The notes under the pieces are model-generated. The model had not been told where the DNA came from and did not search any database. It saw nothing but the letters and a program-made list of their open reading frames with translations. The translations under genes and the position numbers were made by a program. Of a DNA stretch of 64,000 bases, positions 14,443 to 58,270 are shown piece by piece. This DNA is from Candidatus Latescibacterota bacterium (GTDB lineage Bacteria > Latescibacterota > UBA2968 > UBA8231). The stretch spans positions 1,952,001 to 2,016,000 of the forward strand of contig CBDCSU010000006.1 in the NCBI GenBank assembly GCA_965221775.1. The letters run 5' to 3'. The number at the start of each line of letters is the position of its first letter. The stretch's first letter is position 1.

Positions 14443-17400
14443 TCAACCGCCCGAAGCCGGGACGCCTCCCTCCGGGGCCTCCGCCGCCCCCCCGCCTGCC
14501 GAGAAGTGGCGGCTCAGGAACCGCCCCATGTCGTCGGTCAGCGAGTACATAACCGGCACGAGGACCAGGGTCAGGAAGGTGGCGAAGAGGATGCCGACGA
14601 TGACGGCGATCGCCATGGGGCCCCACCAGGCGGCCTGCTCGCCGCCCCAGTAGAGGTTGGGGTCGAGGCTGCCGAAGAGGCCGAAGAAGTCGAAGTTGAG
14701 GCCGATGGCCAGCGGCACCAGGCCGAGGGCGGTGGTGACCGCCGTCAGGATCACGGGGCGCAGACGGGTGCGGCCGGCGCGGATGAGGGCGGCCTGGCGG
14801 TCGAGTCCGTCGCGGCGGCGCAGGATGTCGATGTAGTGGACGAGGACGATGGCGTTGTTGACCACGATCCCGGCGAGGGAGATGACGCCGACGCCGGTCA
14901 TGATGATCCCGAAGGGCATGCGGAAGACCATGAGCCCGAGGAGGACGCCGGCGGTGGACATGATCACCGAGGTGAGGATGATCACCGGCTTGATCACCGA
15001 GTTGAACTGGGTCACGAGGATGAAGGCGATCAGGCCCAAGGCCGCCAGGAAGGCGGTGGCCAGGAACTCCATGGCCTCGCCTTGTTCCTCCTGCTGGCCG
15101 GTGTAGCGCACCGTGTAGCCCGGGGGCAGCTCGTCTTCAACGAAGGACGCGAGGTGCTCCTGCACCTCGAAGAAGACGGCGTTCTTGTTGAGGCCGGCGC
15201 GCACGTCCGAGCTGATCGTGGCCATGCGGTCCATGTCCTTGCGGCGGATCGAGCCGAGCCCCTCTCCCACCGTCCAGCTGGCCACCGAGACCAGGGGGAT
15301 CGGCTCGCCCGGACCGTTCTCCACGACCAGGTCGCGCAGCGACTCCAGGTCCTGCCGCCAGGGCTCGGCGAGGCGCACGACCACGTCGTACTCGTCGTTG
15401 CCGGTGCGGTAGCGGCTCGCCTCCGTGCCCTGCACGGCGGTGCGCACGACGCCGGCCACCTTCGCCGTGGACAACCCGTACATGGCGGCCCTCTCGCGGT
15501 CGACATGCACGGCCAGCTCCGGGCGGGCCTCGTCGAGGTCGCTCTCGAGGCCGCTGAGCTTCGGCGCCACGGGGGAGCTTCTCAGGACCTGCAGGACGCG
15601 GTCGGAGAGGTCCTTGAGCACCCGGGGATCCTTGCCGACGATCTCGATGTTCACCGGCGCCCCCTGGGGCGGCCCGTCCACGGGCTTGTCCACCGAGATC
15701 TCGGCGCCGGCGATCTCGCGCCCAACCCTCTCCTGCATGCGCGCCAGGGTCTCGAAGCTGTCGAAGCGCCGCTCGTGGTACTCGGTGAAGTTCACCATGA
15801 CGCGCGCGTCGTTGGCTCCCTGGGTGCCGCCTATCAGCGGGCTGCCCCCGGCGCCGACGGTGGTCACCGCCGACTCGGCGTCCTCGAAGCCCTGGACGCC
15901 GCGCACCTGCAGCTCCAGCTCGCGGGCGATGCTGTCGAGGTACTCGACGCGGGTGCCCACCGGCGCCTGGGCATCGACCCAGACCTGCCTGGGCGGGATG
16001 TCCTCCGGGAAGAACACGATGCCGCTGTTGAAGCGGCCGAAGGCGGCGACCATGGCCACGAGCACCGCCAGGGAACCGGCGACGACGATGAAGCGGTGGC
16101 CGAGGGCCCAGCCCAGGACCCCCTCGTAGCGGTCGATGAGCCACGGCAGGTCCGCCCCCTGGAAGCGCCGCGCCAGGGGACCGAGGATCAGGCGATGGGC
16201 CAGGATGGCGGCGACGGCGGTGGCGGCCAGCAGGGCCACGGTCAGGGCGTTGGCCGCGGCCAGACTCGCGGCGGCCAGAACGGCGAGGGCGATCAGCGCC
16301 AGGCGCCCAGAAAGCGGCATCCCGGCTCCGCGCTCTCCCTCCAGCCGCAGCCACCGGCTGCACAGCACCGGAACGATGACGAGGGCCACGAAGAGGGAGC
16401 TGGAGAGGGTGACGATCAGGGTCATGGGCAGGTACTTCATGAACTCGCCCACGGTGCCCGTCCAGAACAGGAGCGGACTGAAGGCGGCCAGGGTCGTCAA
16501 CGTCGAGGCGATGACGGGCAGAGCCACCTCGCCCGTGGCCTTGCGCGCGGCCTCTGCCCGGTCCCAGCCCTCCTCGACGTAGCGGTAGGTGTTCTCGACG
16601 ATGACGATGGCGTTGTCCACGAGCATGCCGAGGGCGAGGATCAGGGAGAACAGGACCACCATGTTCATGGTCACGCCGAGGAGCCCGAGGACGAGGAAGG
16701 AGAGCAGCATCGACGTGGGGATGGCGACGCCCACGAAGACCGAGGTGCGCACGCCGAGGAAGAACAGCAGCACCCCGACGATCAGCAGCAGGCCGGAGAG
16801 GATGTTGTTCTCCAGGCTGCTGACCATCATGCGGATGTCGCGGGACATGTCGGAGGTCGTCTTGACCACCGTCGTGGGCGGGAGCTCCGCCTCCATCCCG
16901 GCGATGACGTCGCGCACGGCGTCGGCCGTCTCGATGATGTTCTCCCCCGTCCGTTTGATCACGTCGAGGGTGACCACCGGCCGGCCGTCGAGGCGGGCGT
17001 AGCTCCGGCGCTCGGCGAAGCCGAAGTCGACATCGGCCAGGTCGCGCACATAGACCGGCCGTCCTTCGGGAGCGGCGACCACGAGGTCGCCGATCGACCG
17101 GGGGTCGTCGATCTCGCCGTCGACGCGGACCAGGAACTTCAGCTCCCCCACGTCGATGGAGCCGCCGGGGATGTTGATGTTCTCGTCGCGCACCGTCTCG
17201 ACCACGTCCTTCAGGGTCAGACCGTAGTAGAGCAGGCGCGGCAGGGAGACGTCGACCTGCACCTCGCGCTCGCGGCCCCCGCGCAGGTCGACGCGCAGCA
17301 CCGAGGGGATCTGCTCCAGGCGGTCCTGCAGCTCCTCGCCCAGCTGCTTGAGGCGGACCAGGCCGTACTCCCCGGACAGGTTCACCTGCAGGATCGGCAC

Positions 17401-17844
17401 GTCCTCGAAGTCGAACTCGTAGATGCGGGGCTCCTCGGCGTCGGCGGGGAGGTCGCCCTTGGCCAGATCGACCTTCTCGCGCACCAGCCGCATGGCCTCG
17501 GGGAGATCGACTTCGGTGCTGAACTCGGCCACCACGCTGGAGTAGCCCTCGACCGAGGTCGAGGTCAGCTCCTTCAGGTCCGGAATCGTCTTCAGCTCCA
17601 GCTCCAGCTCCCGCGTCACCAGCGACTCCATGTCCTTGGGCGACACCCCGGGGTAGATGGTGTTCACCGCGATGACGGGGATCTCGATCTGGGGGAAGGC
17701 CTCCTTGGGGACGCTGCGGTAGGCCACGACGCCGGCCAGGGCGATTATGGCGAAGAGCATGAGCACGCTGGTACCGTGGCGCACCGCCCAGGAGGTGACG
17801 GGCAGTTCGTCGAAGGCGTCGGGGCCGCCGGGGCGATCGGTCAT
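14443..17844 (-). CDS. RND efflux transporter permease (AcrB/AcrD/AcrF family)
   Basis: 1133 aa; 'LGMLVDNAIVIVEN', 'GIVVNNAIVL', 'RLRPVILTAVTT..GLVPLA', 'PMAIAVIVG..TFLTLVLVP'. Confidence 0.95.
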   Translation of the reverse strand: MTDRPGGPDAFDELPVTSWAVRHGTSVLMLFAIIALAGVVAYRSVPKEAFPQIEIPVIAVNTIYPGVSPKDMESLVTRELELELKTIPDLKELTSTSVEGYSSVVAEFSTEVDLPEAMRLVREKVDLAKGDLPADAEEPRIYEFDFEDVPILQVNLSGEYGLVRLKQLGEELQDRLEQIPSVLRVDLRGGREREVQVDVSLPRLLYYGLTLKDVVETVRDENINIPGGSIDVGELKFLVRVDGEIDDPRSIGDLVVAAPEGRPVYVRDLADVDFGFAERRSYARLDGRPVVTLDVIKRTGENIIETADAVRDVIAGMEAELPPTTVVKTTSDMSRDIRMMVSSLENNILSGLLLIVGVLLFFLGVRTSVFVGVAIPTSMLLSFLVLGLLGVTMNMVVLFSLILALGMLVDNAIVIVENTYRYVEEGWDRAEAARKATGEVALPVIASTLTTLAAFSPLLFWTGTVGEFMKYLPMTLIVTLSSSLFVALVIVPVLCSRWLRLEGERGAGMPLSGRLALIALAVLAAASLAAANALTVALLAATAVAAILAHRLILGPLARRFQGADLPWLIDRYEGVLGWALGHRFIVVAGSLAVLVAMVAAFGRFNSGIVFFPEDIPPRQVWVDAQAPVGTRVEYLDSIARELELQVRGVQGFEDAESAVTTVGAGGSPLIGGTQGANDARVMVNFTEYHERRFDSFETLARMQERVGREIAGAEISVDKPVDGPPQGAPVNIEIVGKDPRVLKDLSDRVLQVLRSSPVAPKLSGLESDLDEARPELAVHVDRERAAMYGLSTAKVAGVVRTAVQGTEASRYRTGNDEYDVVVRLAEPWRQDLESLRDLVVENGPGEPIPLVSVASWTVGEGLGSIRRKDMDRMATISSDVRAGLNKNAVFFEVQEHLASFVEDELPPGYTVRYTGQQEEQGEAMEFLATAFLAALGLIAFILVTQFNSVIKPVIILTSVIMSTAGVLLGLMVFRMPFGIIMTGVGVISLAGIVVNNAIVLVHYIDILRRRDGLDRQAALIRAGRTRLRPVILTAVTTALGLVPLAIGLNFDFFGLFGSLDPNLYWGGEQAAWWGPMAIAVIVGILFATFLTLVLVPVMYSLTDDMGRFLSRHFSAGGGAAEAPEGGVPASGG

Positions 17845-18926
17845 CGGGATACGATGCGCAGGCGGTCGCCGTCGGCCACCTGCTGCTGGCCGACGACGAT
17901 CAGGCGGTCCGCCGGGGACAGGCCCGAGGTGGCCACCACCTCGTCGCCGCCCGAGGCGCCGAGGGTGACGGGGCGGGCCCGGGCGACGGGGCCTTCACCG
18001 CCGTCGCCGGCGACGAAGGCGGTGAAGCCTTCCTCGGTGCGGACCAGGGCCTGGTTCGGCACCACGATGGCCCCGGGATGGACCTCCAGCACGAGCATCA
18101 CCTCGGCGACCATGGCCGGCTTGGCCCCGGCCACGGCGCGCTCGAGGGCGAGCTCGACGGGGAAGGTGCGGTGGCGGCCGTCGACGGCGGCCCCCACGTA
18201 GGTCACCGTGGCCGCGCAGGTGTCTCCGAGGTCGGCGAAGGCGACCGTCGCCCGGTCGCCGGTGCTCACGTCCGCGGCGTAGCGCTCCGGGACGCCGGCG
18301 GTCACCTTGAGGGGCTCCAGGTCGAGGATGTGGGCCACCGCCTGGCCCGGGGCGACGACCGAGCCGACCTCCACGAGGCGGCGGTCGAGGAGGCCATCGA
18401 AAGGCGCCCGCACCACCGTGCGCCGGAGCCGCGCCTCGATCAGCTCCAGCCGGGCCTGGCTCTGCTCGGCGGCGAGACGGGCCTCGACGTACTCCCCCTC
18501 GGTGCCGACGCGTTCCTCCTCGAAGAGCCGCTTCCGGCGCACCCAGCGGTCGGCTGCCAGGGCCGACTGGGCCTGCGCCTCGCCGCGCTGGGCGCGCAGC
18601 AGCTCGTCGTCGAGCCGGACCAGCGCCTGGCCGCGGCGCACCTTCTCGCCCTTGTCGGCCAGGATCGCGGCCACCGTCCCGCCCTCCTCGGCGCCGACCG
18701 TCACCTGGCGGTCGGCGCCGACCGTGCCGGTGAGGCGGATCATGTCGGTGAAGGGCCGCGCCTCGAGGATCTCGACTTCGACGTTGATGATGCGCCGGGT
18801 GTCGGGCGCGGTGGACTCGTCGTCGGCGGGCGCGTCCCCACAGCCTCCGAGGGCGAGCAGGGCCGCGGCGGCGGCCGGCGGAAGGGCGCCTCGGACGCGG
18901 CGCCACCAGGGCAGGGGATTCCTCAC
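17841..18926 (-). CDS. RND periplasmic adaptor (membrane fusion protein), lipoprotein
   Basis: Lipobox LGGC; 'GTV..I..DKGEKVRRGQALVRLD', 'VRAPFDG', 'VPE'; ATGA overlaps on both sides. Confidence 0.92.
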   Translation of the reverse strand: MRNPLPWWRRVRGALPPAAAAALLALGGCGDAPADDESTAPDTRRIINVEVEILEARPFTDMIRLTGTVGADRQVTVGAEEGGTVAAILADKGEKVRRGQALVRLDDELLRAQRGEAQAQSALAADRWVRRKRLFEEERVGTEGEYVEARLAAEQSQARLELIEARLRRTVVRAPFDGLLDRRLVEVGSVVAPGQAVAHILDLEPLKVTAGVPERYAADVSTGDRATVAFADLGDTCAATVTYVGAAVDGRHRTFPVELALERAVAGAKPAMVAEVMLVLEVHPGAIVVPNQALVRTEEGFTAFVAGDGGEGPVARARPVTLGASGGDEVVATSGLSPADRLIVVGQQQVADGDRLRIVSR

Positions 18927-20995
18927 TCCATCTCCTCCGGGTCGAGTGCGGGCTCGCCGTCGACGGGGGACACCCGTCCGATGGCGAGGCCCAACTGGGC
19001 CCGCCTGGCGAGCCGGTCGTGGGCCGCCTGGGCCATGTTGAACTCGCTGCGCCGCAGGGCGACCTCGGCATCGGTCACCTCGAGCTGGCTGCCGAGGCCC
19101 TCGCGGAAGCGGGCGCTGGCGATCTCGAACCCCCGCCGGGCCTGGGCCACGGCGAGGCGCTGGCCTTCCTGGCGCCGGCCGGCCTCGGCCAGCGCCGCCT
19201 CCAGGTCACGGACCTGGACCGCCGCCTGATCGCGGGCCATCTGGGTACGGACCTGGGCCTGGCGCAGGGCGGCCTGCCTCTGGTCGATGCGCGCGTCCCG
19301 CTGCAGGCCGCTGAACAGGGGCAGCTCCACGGAGAGGCCGGCCATCTTGCTGGTGGCGCGGTTGCGGGCGCTGCCGAAGAAGTCGGGTCTTCCGTCCTGC
19401 TGCGCCTGCACGTCCCAGGTGGCGAAGAGGGAGAGCTTGGGCAGGTACTCCGCCTGCTCGATCCGCACCTGCCTCCGGCTCAGCTCGGCGGTCTGCTCGA
19501 GCTGGCGCACGTCGGAGCGGTGAGCCAGCGCCGTCTGCACCAGGTCCCCGTCCGGCAACTCCCGGCCGGAGTCGGCCGTGGTGAGGGATGCGCTCCCGGA
19601 CAACCGCAGCCGGCCGGGGTCGTCGAGGGCCAGCTCCAGGCCCAGGCGCCGGCGCGCCGAGTCCCTGGCGTTGCGGGCCTTCAGCAGCTCCGGCTCGAGG
19701 TTGGCCAGCTCGACCTCCAGCCGCAGCACGTCGTAATCGGAGGCCAGGCCCGCCCGGGCCCGGGCGCGGGTCTCGTCGAGGGCCTGCCGCAGGCGGTCCA
19801 GGGACCGCTCGGTGAGGCGCACCTCCTCTCCGCGCAGCAGCAGGTCGAAGCAGAGGAGGCGCACCCGCGTCGCCACCTGCTGCGACTGGCCGCGCACCAT
19901 TTCCGTCCGCAGCCGCAGGTAGTCGCCGGCGGCTCCGAGGCCGACGAGGGCTCTCGGGTCGAACAGCGGCTGCCGCAGAGTGACGGCGCTCTGCCAGCTG
20001 TTGTCGGCGCCGAACTCCAGGGAGATGAACTCCCCCTCCGGGGCCGCGGGATTGAAGAATCTCGCCGGCACGAAGGAGACGGGCGGCGAGATGTTGCGCG
20101 CGTAACGGGCCGAGAAGTCAACGCGGGGCCAGACCTCTCCCCAGGCTTCGGAGGCCCGCTCCTCGGCCTCGGTCACGAGCAGCCGCGCCTCCGCCATCTC
20201 GCGGCCCCGGTCCAGGGCCAGCTCCACCACCTCGTCGATGCTCAGCTGCAACTCGCCGCCCGGGGGAGTGTCCTCCGCGACAACCGGCGCCCCCCAGCCC
20301 ATGAGGAGCCAGGTCAGCACGGACGAGGCCCGGGCGCGCAGCCGGCCCTTGCCGCCGGAGGCGGCTGCCGCCTCTGACTGCGAGAGATCCGCCATGGCCC
20401 GGTCCATCTCCACCTCGTAGGCGGGGGTGGCCATGCCGGTGATCGCCCGCCGGCTGGAGGCCCGGTAGTGGCGGCGGAACTCCCCGGCGTCCATCTGCAG
20501 GCAGCCGCGCAGGTAGATGGAGATCAGGCCGTGGGCGTGGGCCCACAAGGTGCAGGAGACGTCGGCGGGGTCGAGGGGCTGGAAGAGGCCGGCGTCGATG
20601 CACTCGCGCACACGGTCGTTGAAGAACCGGCCGACGCTGGCGACCTGCTCCGTCACCTGCTCGGGGAACTCGTCCACGCCGAGGGTGTGGGCGGGGGTGT
20701 AGAGCATCTCGTAGTACTTCGGCTGATCGAGGGCGAAGTCGAGGTAGGCCTGGCCCGCCAGGTAGAGGCGCTCGGCGGGGGTGCGGCCCGAAAGGGCGCC
20801 GTAGAGCCGCTCGCTCAGCCGCCGGTAGGCTTCGGCGACGACGTCGAGGAGCATCGCCTCGCGGCTGTCGTAGTGACGGTAGAGGGCCGGCGCCGTGACC
20901 CCCAGGTCGCGGGCCAGCCGGCGCATGGAGACGGCCTCGGCGCCGCCCTCCAGGTAGAGCTCGCAGGCTCTCGTGAGGATATCCGTGCGGTCCAT
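18923..20995 (-). CDS. In-frame fusion of a TetR-family regulator (aa about 1-196) and a TolC-family outer-membrane factor
   Basis: TetR HTH 'SMRRLARDLGVTAPALYRHY', C-terminal 'WAHAHG'; then a signal-like segment and OMF motifs (LRQPLF, YDVLRLEVEL, AEYLPKLSL, LPLFSG, RFREGLGSQLEVTDAE); no intervening stop. Confidence 0.85.
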   Translation of the reverse strand: MDRTDILTRACELYLEGGAEAVSMRRLARDLGVTAPALYRHYDSREAMLLDVVAEAYRRLSERLYGALSGRTPAERLYLAGQAYLDFALDQPKYYEMLYTPAHTLGVDEFPEQVTEQVASVGRFFNDRVRECIDAGLFQPLDPADVSCTLWAHAHGLISIYLRGCLQMDAGEFRRHYRASSRRAITGMATPAYEVEMDRAMADLSQSEAAAASGGKGRLRARASSVLTWLLMGWGAPVVAEDTPPGGELQLSIDEVVELALDRGREMAEARLLVTEAEERASEAWGEVWPRVDFSARYARNISPPVSFVPARFFNPAAPEGEFISLEFGADNSWQSAVTLRQPLFDPRALVGLGAAGDYLRLRTEMVRGQSQQVATRVRLLCFDLLLRGEEVRLTERSLDRLRQALDETRARARAGLASDYDVLRLEVELANLEPELLKARNARDSARRRLGLELALDDPGRLRLSGSASLTTADSGRELPDGDLVQTALAHRSDVRQLEQTAELSRRQVRIEQAEYLPKLSLFATWDVQAQQDGRPDFFGSARNRATSKMAGLSVELPLFSGLQRDARIDQRQAALRQAQVRTQMARDQAAVQVRDLEAALAEAGRRQEGQRLAVAQARRGFEIASARFREGLGSQLEVTDAEVALRRSEFNMAQAAHDRLARRAQLGLAIGRVSPVDGEPALDPEEME

Positions 20996-20998
20996 GAG

Positions 20999-21067
20999 TG
21001 AACGATGTTAACTGGAGGTCCCCACCTTGTCAACAGGGTGAGGGGGACTTCTTGTTAAACGTGTTCA
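20999..21067 (-). promoter_or_regulatory. Sigma70 promoter TTGACA-17-TAACAT with two inverted candidate TetR operators
   Basis: -35 at 21028-21033, -10 at 21005-21010; TGAACGATGTTAA (20999-21011) and TTAAACGTGTTCA (21055-21067). Confidence 0.7.
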
Positions 21068-21090: not shown

Positions 21091-21537
21091 TCAGGACCCG
21101 AGCACGGCCATGCAGCACTTCTTGAACTTCCGGCCGCTGCCGCAGGGACAGGGGTCGTTGCGGCCGGTGACGGCGCCGCGGCGCCGCACGGTCTCGCCCC
21201 GGACGCTGCCGTCCCGGCGAAAGGCGGCCTGGTAGCCGGTCTCCATGGAATCCACCCGCCGCGCCCACTCCCCGCCCAGGGGGAACCGTCCCGTGACCGG
21301 CAGGTACTCGAGGAACTCCCTGAGCAGGCGCGGGAAGGCGCGCCGCTGCGCCAGGGGCGCGTCGAGCCGGGCGACGCTCTTCAGGGCGCGTTCCATGGCC
21401 TCCTCGGAGACCACGTCGCCCACCTGCTCGCACCAGTGCCCCAGCAGGGGCTCGGCGCCGTCCTTCAGGTGGTCGTCCAGCAGCAGGAAGTGCTGCGAAC
21501 CGGCGAAGGCGCCGACCTCGTCGGTGAGCCTGGACAT
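21091..21537 (-). CDS. SEC-C metal-binding motif protein
   Basis: C-terminal [18 protein letters not shown]. Confidence 0.8.
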
Positions 21538-57226: not shown

Positions 57227-58270
57227 ATGAAGTGGTGGCGGAGGCAACGGCTGCCGCTCCGCCCGACGGAGCCCCTCGAGGACTGGGACGGCCCGTCTCC
57301 GTACTCACCCGGGTATGGAGTCGAGGGGGCCTGGTCCGAGGCCCGCCGCCCGCCGCCGTCCACGGCGCCGCGGCCCTCCACTCACCTGCTGCTGTTCCTG
57401 ATGACCCTGTTCTCCATGATGGTGGCCGGCGCCATGCAGCAGGGCGTCGACCCCCTGATGGAGTTCGGCCAGCTCGTTCACCTCGTGGAGGGCTGGCCCT
57501 TCGCGGCCACCCTCCTCGGCATCCTGACGGTGCACGAGTTCGGCCACTACTTCGCCGCCCGCAGGTGGGGGGTGAAGGCCTCCCTGCCCTACTTCATCCC
57601 CCTTCCCTACCTGTCCCCGCTGGGCACCCTCGGCGCCGTGATCCGCATCCGCTCGCCGATCCCGCACAAGCGCGCCCTTCTCGACATCGGCGCCTCGGGC
57701 CCGCTGGCGGGTCTGGTCGTGGCCGTCGCCGCCTGCCTGGTGGGGCTGCCCATGTCCAAGGTGGTGGAGCCCGGCTACTTCCTGGAGCTGCCGGAGAGCA
57801 TGCGGCCCGGGGTCCTGCAACTGGGCTCGCCGCTGTTGTTCGAGGGGCTCTCGGCGTGGCTGCTTCCGGCCGCCGAAGACAGCATCGTCCTCCTGAGCCC
57901 GGTCGCCTTCGCCGGGTGGGTGGGCCTGGTGATCACCGCCTTCAACCTGCTGCCCGTGGGCCAGCTCGACGGAGGACATATCGCCTACGCCCTCCTCGGC
58001 GACCGCCACCACGCCGTCGGCCGGCTGTGCTTCGCCACCCTGCTGGCCATGGGCGTGTACGGGGTGATGTCGGTTTTCTGGGACCTGCCGCGGGGGTGGC
58101 CCGGGTGGCTGCTGATCGCCCTGCTGCTGGCCCTCGTCGGCCGCCGCCACCCGCCTCCGTACCATGCCGCGATCCCCCTCGACGGCCGCCGCCGGGCGAT
58201 CGCGGTCCTGTGCTTCGTCCTCCTGGCCCTGTGCTTCACGCTGGTGCCGCTCTCCGAGATGGCGGGATGA
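57227..58270 (+). CDS. Site-2 protease (M50 metallopeptidase)
   Basis: HEFGH, LPYFIP, GTLGAVI, DIGASGP, NLLPVGQLDGGH. Confidence 0.93.
   Translation: MKWWRRQRLPLRPTEPLEDWDGPSPYSPGYGVEGAWSEARRPPPSTAPRPSTHLLLFLMTLFSMMVAGAMQQGVDPLMEFGQLVHLVEGWPFAATLLGILTVHEFGHYFAARRWGVKASLPYFIPLPYLSPLGTLGAVIRIRSPIPHKRALLDIGASGPLAGLVVAVAACLVGLPMSKVVEPGYFLELPESMRPGVLQLGSPLLFEGLSAWLLPAAEDSIVLLSPVAFAGWVGLVITAFNLLPVGQLDGGHIAYALLGDRHHAVGRLCFATLLAMGVYGVMSVFWDLPRGWPGWLLIALLLALVGRRHPPPYHAAIPLDGRRRAIAVLCFVLLALCFTLVPLSEMAG

Follow-up and report, generated by a model that had tools for sequence, protein, structure and literature searches.

A TetR-type repressor and a TolC-type outer-membrane factor encoded in one reading frame, joined by an internal signal peptide, in uncultured Gemmatimonadaceae

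Results

Domain Organization of the Fused Gene

The stretch of DNA analyzed here (64,000 nucleotides; herein the window) contains a tetR-OMF-MFP-RND operon, in which the first gene joins a TetR-type repressor to a TolC-type outer-membrane factor (OMF) and is followed by genes for a membrane-fusion protein (MFP) and an RND permease (Table 1). The OMF stop overlaps the GTG start of the MFP gene in a GTGA at 18923 through 18926, and the MFP and RND frames share 4 nt (17841 through 17844). The fused gene carries the only OMF of the operon; the genome has other OMF paralogues (four matches in G000).

Table 1. Features of the fused tetR-OMF operon (positions in the window)
Feature	Position	Strand	Remarks
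Fused tetR-OMF reading frame	18923..20995	-	690 codons and stop; no internal stop
TetR domain, residues 1-190 (HTH and TetR_C_33)	20426..20995	-	Pfam, AlphaFold model, dN/dS
Former TetR C-terminal tail, residues 191-215 (25 residues)	20351..20425	-	Holds ATG197 and GAGG
Internal signal peptide, residues 216-240 (KGRLRAR / ASSVLTWLLMGWGAP / VVA)	20276..20350	-	Alignment; predicted cut after Ala240
Mature TolC-type OMF, residues 241-690	18926..20275	-	OEP x2, model
Membrane-fusion (adaptor) protein gene, MFP	17841..18926	-	HlyD_D23 8e-20
RND permease gene	14443..17844	-	ACR_tran 2.4e-199
Sigma-70-like promoter TTGACA-17-TAACAT	21005..21033	-	10/12 positions matched
Operator-like box O1, TGAACGATGTTAAC on + / GTTAACATCGTTCA on -	20999..21012	+	Overlaps -10 and predicted transcription start
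Operator-like box O2, TGAACACGTTTAAC	21054..21067	-	Upstream of -35 hexamer

Pfam places TetR_N (PF00440) at residues 6 through 51 (43.8 bits; cut-off 24), TetR_C_33 (PF13305) at residues 80 through 170 (49.4 bits; cut-off 26.8), and OEP (PF02321) on two stretches reaching residue 673 (174 bits; cut-off 22). Frame and domains together bear out the original prediction of a single 690-aa open reading frame with TetR, a basic and hydrophobic segment, and a full OMF in succession; the segment, described there as GKGRLRARASSVLTWLLMGWGAPVVA/EDT, lies at residues 215 through 243. The TetR part is not a free-standing repressor of ∼200 residues, as the frame continues for 475 codons beyond it without a stop.

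In the AlphaFold model residues 1 through 213 form helices only (pLDDT 89 to 97 for the TetR domain), ending in a predicted tail helix at 191 through 213 where pLDDT drops from 89 to 74; residues 214 through 245 (pLDDT <50) are unstructured between two confident domains. The OMF part (pLDDT mostly >90) consists of long helices (347 through 414, 420 through 454, 565 through 631, and 637 through 672) and β-strands arranged as strand pairs. It is matched by TolC and VceC chains in the PDB (E values 2e-8 to 7e-7) and scores below the NCBIfam cut-offs for both TIGR01844 (TolC; 92.0 versus 225 bits) and TIGR01845 (NodT; 92.6 versus 210 bits). It is thus a divergent OMF assigned by neither the TolC nor the NodT subfamily model, and no NCBIfam model covers the fused TetR-OMF form. 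A NodT-type lipobox was not found, there being no Cys at +1 past the hydrophobic stretch (VVA/EDT), so the OMF is not a lipoprotein.

Promoter and Candidate Operators

The TTGACA-17-TAACAT promoter proposed in the original prediction is one of two promoter-like sites found in 14000 through 21700, against 0.2 expected from shuffled sequences. Between its -10 hexamer and the tetR ATG, 9 nt downstream, there is no Shine-Dalgarno sequence, and the tetR-OMF mRNA would be nearly leaderless if transcription starts where predicted. The promoter lies within an inverted repeat (arms 20999 through 21023 and 21043 through 21067) whose cores, O1 and O2, are 14-bp imperfect palindromes on either side of it; these are the two inverted candidate operators that had been noted, present as sequence and unique in the genome. 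The pattern TGAACNNNKTTAAC matches only O1 and O2 in the window (0.09 matches expected) and only the same two sites in the 5.36-Mb genome; as it was derived from O1 and O2 themselves, their uniqueness alone is informative. TTGAC(A/G) and a GTTAAC(A/G)(T/A)CGTT box are kept in all nine aligned loci, fused and unfused, as is a box related to O2, and the spacing from -10 to ATG is 7 to 9 nt across these loci.

The Internal Signal Peptide

Residues 216 through 240 align with the N-terminal signal peptides of five unfused orthologues, and by this homology the internal hydrophobic linker is the former signal peptide of the OMF itself. Beginning 215 residues from the N terminus of the protein, it shows the three regions (n, h, and c) of a signal peptide and a predicted cleavage site of the A-x-A type. 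All 18 junction sequences, counted by hand, have at least three Lys/Arg in the n-region, a hydrophobic stretch of 12 to 17 residues, Ala at -1, and Val/Ala at -3. The segment is the top hydropathy peak of the protein, though a moderate one (1.12; 19-residue Kyte-Doolittle window). In the uncleaved chain, as modeled, the structured part of the OMF begins ∼8 residues after the hydrophobic segment; from the geometry of TolC we take this spacer to be too short for the uncleaved chain to reach the outer membrane, so that cleavage would be needed. The genome encodes two signal peptidase I enzymes, two M50 (site-2-type) proteases, and one SppA-type S49 protease.

Conservation and Origin of the Fusion

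Among the 41 related genomes searched, the frame is open over query residues 1 through 690 in five (G000, G002, G004, G006, and G007), all from one genus (5 of its 10 genomes), at 84 to 100% identity and with in-frame indels only; in the relative L017 the junction is open, but the OMF frame shifts near residue 348. All 16 protein clusters at 80 to 99% identity, which come from several sources, carry PF00440, PF13305, and PF02321. A stop or frameshift at the junction in relatives, named in the original prediction as evidence against it, was looked for, and the junction proved open in these five genomes and 16 clusters. Coverage of the junction was likewise found: contig X5 (794 nt; window 19818 through 20611), from an independent metagenome study, crosses it with no gaps. 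A contig of the run that is the likely source (X1 record 1) spans 18712 through 21150 and has no differing letters but, somewhere along its length, 24 letters more than the window. Two RNA-library runs, of a kind that can contain DNA and so no proof of transcription, gave short contigs at 20210 through 20393, 20447 through 20694, 20821 through 20971, and 18778 through 18945; no contig from these runs lies over 20394 through 20446, and transcript ends are not visible there.

The fused group belongs to uncultured Gemmatimonadaceae. Values of dN/dS, obtained with L017 left out, are 0.10 to 0.20 for the TetR part (10 pairwise comparisons) and 0.16 to 0.42 for the OMF part; they point to strong purifying selection on TetR and suggest that both halves are functional. 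The fused clade is young (dS 0.05 to 0.33). Codons 188 through 215 offer 6 to 9 one-step nonsense changes per genome, and by rough arithmetic ∼1 nonsense event is expected neutrally in the five-genome tree, or fewer should the OMF start at Met197; the lack of a stop in these codons is therefore no proof of selection.

In all four unfused relatives compared, the tetR stop and OMF start overlap as ATGA with tetR one frame ahead, and the fusion thus arose by a one-base frame change at this translationally coupled junction. The fused tail resembles, by eye, the unfused TetR tails up to their stop (..ASG and stop versus ..ASGGK), and Lys216 occupies the place of the ancestral OMF Met1, where P0018 has Met. 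The unfused operon of sister Gemmatimonadaceae (L006, L008, L009, and L010) has the same promoter and operator layout, with TetR 62 to 70% and OMF 55 to 59% identical; its leaderless tetR ends with the TGA within the OMF ATGA, giving two proteins and an OMF with an N-terminal signal peptide, whereas in the fused gene the two frames run together and Lys has replaced the OMF start codon. In a tree of OMF sequences (printed without support values, and leaving out L017 for its frame shift, P0012 for a shifted C terminus, and L011 for truncation), the 16 fused proteins and P0018 form one clade with P0019 as its sister, and five split forms fall outside. Recent loss of a stop codon, an alternative in the original prediction, thus holds as to origin, as a frame change at the ATGA overlap, and fails as to a recent or private event, since dS within the clade reaches ∼0.3 and the sister lineage shares the fusion. 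In that lineage (P0019 and L011) the OMF frame survives next to a decayed TetR part, and the fusion is thus dispensable there as a regulator.

A Second TetR-OMF Family

As to the search for TetR_N plus OEP architectures proposed with the original prediction, a fused family of 135 clusters exists in Elusimicrobiota besides the 16 clusters of this group. Its members (e.g., P0113 and L021) resemble the gene described here in having a signal-peptide-like joint and in being followed by MFP and RND genes. Of 78 Elusimicrobiota species loci, 63 are fused, 14 split, and one truncated. In 35 of the 60 mappable fused loci the stretch that begins 12 codons ahead of the n-region Lys and ends 2 codons past it contains no ATG, GTG, or TTG; there, the OMF has hardly any route of synthesis other than the fusion.

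The two families differ in several respects. The Elusimicrobiota OMF is only 24 to 28% identical to the OMF here (A2 alignment), and in an OMF search P0113 scores 156.7 bits, and the nearest unfused OMF of Gemmatimonadaceae type reaches 513.9 bits. At the Elusimicrobiota joint TetR runs directly into the signal peptide without the tail that is present here, and the split relatives have TAA or TAG followed immediately by an in-frame ATG, or short overlaps. L021 has TTGACA-17-TATAAT 25 nt before its ATG and, unlike the gene here, is thus not leaderless. The Elusimicrobiota fused family is also much older and larger than that of Gemmatimonadaceae. Because the junctions differ, each family has its own unfused relatives, and the OMF match is distant, the two fusions are of independent origin and do not share descent of the joint. 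An architecture that arose at least twice and has persisted across much of Elusimicrobiota is no short-lived accident. The Atlas names a Verrucomicrobiota cluster (54 members, 738 aa), which we record as a lead only.

Discussion

The polyprotein reading put forward in the original prediction stands insofar as the fusion is genuine and inherited and the linker shares descent with the N-terminal signal peptide that unfused orthologues carry, with its features kept in 18 of 18 sequences. We lean toward a TetR-OMF precursor that signal peptidase cuts into a free channel and a repressor bearing the signal remnant. Transcription would start at the nearly leaderless sigma-70-type promoter, whose sequence is seen between the two operator boxes, and the TetR part would fold in the cytoplasm. 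Basic residues 216 through 222 would keep the N-terminal side cytoplasmic while the hydrophobic segment enters Sec as a hairpin and the OMF is translocated; signal peptidase I would then cut after V/A-x-A240. By analogy with the respective families, the freed 450-residue OMF would trimerize in the outer membrane and serve the downstream-encoded MFP and RND pump, and TetR, retaining its tail and the signal remnant, would stay at or slip off the inner membrane and repress the operon via O1 and O2 until released by ligand. The net effect would be one repressor monomer per channel monomer by this route, hardening a stoichiometric coupling for which the ATGA overlap had already provided in the ancestor. 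Against this reading, an N-terminal domain of 215 residues that is folded and probably dimeric may impede targeting of the moderately hydrophobic segment to Sec. The weakest part of the original prediction is the coupling of repression to export flux, because TetR might be able to fold and bind DNA even while the precursor is uncleaved.

The main alternative, less likely but possible, is that two in-frame products are made, as the original prediction also considered: nearly all OMF would start at ATG197 with a 44-residue signal peptide, and a weak leaderless tetR start would give TetR-OMF, tolerated as a by-product after loss of the stop codon and supplying enough repressor. The internal start that had been predicted is there, with ATG197 at 20405 through 20407 and GAGG at 20413 through 20416, 5 nt apart. 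Met197 and GAGG occur in 18 of 18 fused sequences and are absent from unfused relatives, where the aligned residue is Lys or Thr/Gln; this fits a separate OMF start with the fused chain as a minor product. Position 195 varies among V, A, G, and E, all with G-initial codons, which is weak evidence that GAGG is kept, and the motif resembles the GGAGGAG ahead of the MFP GTG start. With the former OMF start now Lys216, any free precursor needs a new start; the OMF of P0019 is called from a start inside its TetR remnant, and leaderless tetR without a Shine-Dalgarno sequence is ancestral. On the other hand, GAGG ahead of an in-frame ATG is probably not rare in a GC-rich, Glu-rich gene, and no internal promoter-like site was found in 14000 through 21700. 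The fused chain persists, and with no stop from Met1 to codon 690 every ribosome starting at the tetR ATG must read into the OMF; the 35 of 60 Elusimicrobiota fused loci that have no nearby start indicate that the fused route can suffice.

The precursor reading can be extended to the proposal, which we consider unlikely, that TetR-OMF fusions are a recurrent regulatory device (Gemmatimonadota, Elusimicrobiota, and perhaps Verrucomicrobiota) in which signal peptidase leaves the repressor on the inner membrane, either tethered there or released only once an S2P/SppA-type protease has removed the signal remnant. If so, a tethered repressor would keep the operon that encodes it close to where pumps are assembled, and repressor dosage and availability would report how much channel has been exported.

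It is highly improbable that the protein is instead an uncleaved ToxR/CadC-like bitopic regulator with TetR in the cytoplasm, a single pass through the membrane, and an OMF-like part that senses in the periplasm instead of forming a channel. The predicted topology is that of membrane-bound one-component regulators, and the genome has other OMF paralogues; but the hydrophobic stretch is short, moderate, and signal-peptide-like rather than anchor-like, the -3/-1 Ala/Val pattern is retained throughout, and the OMF, with a full two-repeat TolC architecture and a confident model, has the free OMF of sister operons as its orthologue and is the sole OMF gene in its own operon. That two normal genes were joined artificially, by a frameshift in assembly or sequencing, or by a recent mutation private to this genome, is for practical purposes ruled out: a single-base error at the ancestral ATGA would indeed fuse them and L017 does carry a frame shift elsewhere in the gene, but the same open junction recurs across genomes, clusters, and the independent-study contig, and in 17 of 18 sequences Lys or Arg now stands in place of the former start codon.

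The merger of TetR and OMF seems never to have been studied. A literature search of full article texts returned nothing on TetR-OMF fusions or membrane-tethered TetR; PMC4827864 was rejected as a report of such a fusion, the matching text reading "tetratricopeptide" and not TetR. In NCBI records TetR-OMF proteins go under "TolC family protein" or "hypothetical protein", names that hide the regulator part. The parts are ordinary (a TetR repressor, a TolC-type channel, and a Sec signal peptide); their combination with the export signal in the middle of the chain is not. If processed as we propose, the protein would be a naturally occurring bacterial polyprotein that signal peptidase cleaves, with repressor and channel fixed at one to one. 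It would also offer a ready system, supplied by nature, for seeing how Sec and signal peptidase cope when a large folded domain precedes the signal peptide.

In AcrR/AcrAB-TolC and TtgR/TtgABC a local TetR repressor and palindromic operators control the RND pump, adaptor, and OMF, and canonical TetR-RND systems encode the repressor in a gene of its own, usually divergent and expressed at a low level; here, by contrast, the OMF polypeptide begins with the repressor. ToxR/CadC-type factors and RodZ place a DNA-binding domain at a cytoplasmic N terminus, cross the membrane in a single hydrophobic pass, and end in a periplasmic part, which is the topology predicted here before cleavage. They differ in that the ToxR/CadC type carries an OmpR-type winged helix where we find a TetR HTH, and that the hydrophobic segment here is a cleavable-type signal peptide, not a stable anchor, followed by a channel protein instead of a sensor. 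Also similar in construction are the single-gene RND-OMF fusions P0144, P0149, and P0169 (ACR_tran and OEP; 1488 to 1556 aa), in which the OMF is likewise joined to the preceding gene of its operon with its own signal peptide as the joint. In those fusions the partner is a membrane protein of the same machine, whereas here it is a soluble DNA-binding repressor, so that a cytoplasmic regulator is linked to an outer-membrane protein.

The Fusion Is Inherited within a Genus

Residues 1 through 690 of the fused TetR-OMF protein (OMF, TolC-type outer-membrane factor) are matched in one stop-free frame in five genomes of one genus, out of 41 related genomes searched; these are the window's own genome and four others at 84 to 95% identity. 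The original prediction had described a single 690-residue ORF carrying a TetR domain, a hydrophobic segment, and a full OMF domain, all of which are borne out by the open frame and the Pfam assignments. The TTGACA-17-TAACAT promoter with its two inverted boxes and the internal ATG with its GAGG, also described there, were each located. The coordinates are summarized in the table.

Features of the fused gene, its promoter region, and the downstream genes
Feature	Position	Strand	Basis or remark
Fused tetR-OMF frame, uninterrupted 690 codons	18923-20995	-	ORF scan and translation
TetR_N	aa 6-51 of fused protein		Pfam, above gathering score
TetR_C_33	aa 80-170 of fused protein		Pfam, above gathering score
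OEP repeat, two stretches	end at aa 673 of fused protein		Pfam, above gathering score
25-residue tail between TetR and signal segment	aa 191-215 of fused protein		
Junction segment KGRLRAR-ASSVLTWLLMGWGAP-VVA, then EDT	between tail and OMF domain		
Internal ATG (Met197)	20405-20407	-	GAGG 5 nt upstream
Membrane-fusion protein (MFP) gene	17841-18926	-	HlyD_D23
RND permease gene	14443-17844	-	ACR_tran
TTGACA-17-TAACAT promoter-like site	21033-21005	-	hexamer scan
14-bp box TGAACGATGTTAAC	20999-21012	opposite to 21054-21067 box	flanks promoter-like site
14-bp box TGAACACGTTTAAC	21054-21067	opposite to 20999-21012 box	flanks promoter-like site

Two checks proposed with the prediction were an alignment of the junction (the joint of TetR tail and signal segment) across relatives and a search for TetR_N + OEP architectures. 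In the alignment the frame is open in the five genomes, with no stop or frameshift at the junction and only in-frame length changes around it. Searches of this kind returned 16 close clusters and a separate Elusimicrobiota family. The close clusters, from a large protein collection, share 80 to 99% identity and all contain the TetR and OEP families; a 17th sequence, P0018, begins within the tail and is in frame across the joint. A gapless 794-nt DNA contig from another study spans 19818 through 20611, including the junction. The open junction in genomes, clusters, and this independent metagenome contig rules out an assembly artifact.

The public relatives are labeled as Gemmatimonadaceae metagenome-assembled genomes, some as Latescibacterota, and the sequencing runs containing the junction are mostly sponge metagenomes. 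Public databases name such proteins "TolC family protein" or [quoted passage not shown]; the architecture is thus visible there, yet our literature search found no paper on it, and the one candidate paper was irrelevant to it.

Strain-level differences were also recorded. The record 1 contig of X1, the window's likely source run, spans 18712 through 21150 with no differing letters, yet has 24 letters more than the window over this stretch. A contig of X5, a set from another study, carries an extra in-frame GTT after 20217, within the N-terminal residues of the mature OMF, a frame-keeping strain variation. In a sixth genome (L017:3001-5072) the fused junction is intact and the OMF part carries a frame shift near residue 348, either a real lesion or a long-read assembly error.

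Downstream, GTGA at 18923 through 18926 contains both the stop codon of the OMF and the start codon of the MFP gene, and the ORFs for MFP and RND have four bases in common.

The Fusion Arose from an ATGA Overlap

The tetR and OMF genes are separate but adjacent in four genomes of the same genus and one of another genus. In the four unfused loci that could be read (4/4), the tetR stop TGA lies inside an ATGA whose ATG is the OMF start, tetR being one frame ahead. Judged from these sequences, one base gained (or two lost) just before the OMF ATG would merge the frames and abolish the tetR stop. Compared by eye, the tail in the fused protein is similar to those of unfused TetRs as far as their stop (..ASG-stop versus ..ASGGK). 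The former OMF Met1 position is now Lys216, with Met retained in P0018, and unfused orthologs have N-terminal signal peptides with which the hydrophobic segment can be aligned. The "linker" is therefore not a new element: it combines the former TetR tail with the former signal peptide of the OMF.

A FastTree phylogeny of the OMF (35 rows, rooted at the midpoint, without printed support values) groups the 16 fused proteins with P0018 in a single clade. P0019 is the sister of this clade, and the five split forms fall outside. P0019 and the sister-lineage locus L011 retain an in-frame remnant of the TetR C terminus that runs directly into the hydrophobic segment, the tail being deleted. P0019 is full length; in L011 (1240-2472) stops interrupt the N-terminal portion of TetR, and the OMF frame terminates prematurely after ..FATWDVQAQ. 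Because the remnant is in frame, the fusion predates the split from this lineage, in which TetR was lost later.

The Promoter Layout Is Shared with Unfused Loci

Two promoter-like sites were found between 14000 and 21700, against 0.2 in shuffles, and TTGACA-17-TAACAT is one of them. Between its −10 hexamer and the ATG of the fused gene lie 9 nt, which contain no Shine-Dalgarno sequence. The motif of the flanking boxes has no further match in the window or in the whole 5.36-Mb genome; as it was derived from the same two sites, the informative point is its uniqueness alone. The aligned loci, fused and unfused, all (9/9) keep the promoter, the upstream box, and the box that covers the −10 hexamer and the start codon, with 7 to 9 nt between −10 hexamer and ATG throughout. 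Since this layout and short spacing are common to both kinds of locus, the ancestral design appears to be a leaderless tetR whose translation is coupled to that of the OMF gene. The upstream neighbor (21091-21537, − strand) encodes a 148-residue protein with a SEC-C-type motif at its end, and the end of this gene sits before the promoter in 5/5 fused genomes.

Both Domains Are Maintained around a Signal-Peptide-Like Segment

Among the five genomes (dS 0.05 to 0.33), dN/dS is 0.10 to 0.20 for the TetR domain, 0.10 to 0.60 for the tail, 0.13 to 0.94 for the signal segment, and 0.16 to 0.42 for the mature OMF. The TetR and OMF domains have been under purifying selection since the fusion. An AlphaFold model of the fused protein (122-row alignment, mean pLDDT 89.7) has a TetR part that is confidently predicted and entirely helical, including a helix at 191 through 213, then pLDDT below 50 at 214 through 245, and a confident TolC-like part from residue 246 on.

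All 18 listed junction sequences keep a basic n-region and a hydrophobic stretch of 12 to 17 residues, and in each (18/18) Ala occupies position −1 and Val or Ala position −3. The junction holds the highest hydropathy peak of the protein, but a modest one (1.12, 19-residue window). The hydrophobic segment thus seems more typical of cleavable signal peptides than of stable membrane anchors. No Cys follows the predicted cut site; the OMF is therefore not a lipoprotein.

Release of the OMF: Precursor Cleavage or Internal Start

The model places the first structured residue of the OMF only about eight residues beyond the hydrophobic segment. A TolC-type protein on such a short tether cannot reach the outer membrane, so either cleavage or a separate OMF start is needed. 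The OMF might be made mostly from Met197, yielding an OMF precursor that lacks TetR and has a long signal peptide: Met197 occurs in 18/18 fused sequences, is absent from unfused tails, and has a usable GAGG upstream. Its use would relieve the one-to-one constraint on repressor and channel and could make it the main OMF source; the fused chain would nonetheless persist, because ribosomes from Met1 encounter no stop. We regard predominant use of Met197 as possible but less likely than the precursor route.

Elusimicrobiota Fusions and the Proposed Precursor Route

An exhaustive representative search found three further TetR_N + OEP proteins (619 to 628 residues), from an Elusimicrobiota family of 135 clusters with the TetR and OEP families in 120/120 listed. 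Its 78 distinct species-level loci comprise 63 fused, 14 split, and one cut by a contig end. In the fused proteins TetR leads straight into a classical signal peptide, and MFP and RND genes again lie downstream; in split relatives the two genes overlap by ATGA or slightly more, or an in-frame ATG comes immediately after TAA/TAG. The family is a parallel independent of the window's fusion. Among the 60 fused loci that were mapped (three were not mappable), 35 lack any ATG, GTG, or TTG in the stretch reaching from 12 codons upstream of the basic residue to 2 codons downstream, and 46 lack one when the stretch begins 6 codons upstream. In loci lacking a nearby start, the OMF could hardly be made except within the fused chain; by analogy, these missing start codons are the strongest indirect support for the precursor route. 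At the Elusimicrobiota locus L072 (1340-1420), TetR and OMF are parted by a frame change in an A run (..TTTAAAAAAATAAAAATT..) with no OMF start codon visible, which may reflect slippage or an error in the homopolymer.

The ESM Atlas holds three clusters of TetR-OMF architecture, with Gemmatimonadota, Elusimicrobiota, and Verrucomicrobiota as the commonest phyla; the Verrucomicrobiota cluster is a lead from the Atlas listing. The representative search also returned distant OMF homologs joined in one protein to a complete RND permease (ACR_tran + OEP; P0144, P0149, and P0169, 1488 to 1556 residues) and partial forms of such proteins (P0124 and P0143).

We incline toward the precursor route being physiologically relevant in the window's operon. 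The TetR part would remain in the cytoplasm, the basic residues holding the N-side inside while Sec takes up the hydrophobic segment. Cleavage by signal peptidase I would occur after Ala240, and the 450-residue OMF would proceed to the outer membrane. Two genes for signal peptidase I, two for M50 proteases, and one for an SppA-type protease are present in the genome; one of its two Peptidase_M50 matches lies in the window (57500-58015, + strand; G000:C6:2009500-2010015), ∼36 kb from the operon. Escherichia coli RseP is described as clearing signal peptides from the membrane (PMC8144685), which makes a second proteolytic cut releasing TetR conceivable. The coupling of repression to export flux put forward in the original prediction is a speculative possibility. 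One repressor monomer would be produced per channel monomer, seemingly a small step beyond the operon's earlier state, given the ancestral ATGA coupling. Local TetR regulators repress efflux operons, and by analogy with them TetR would repress through both candidate boxes.
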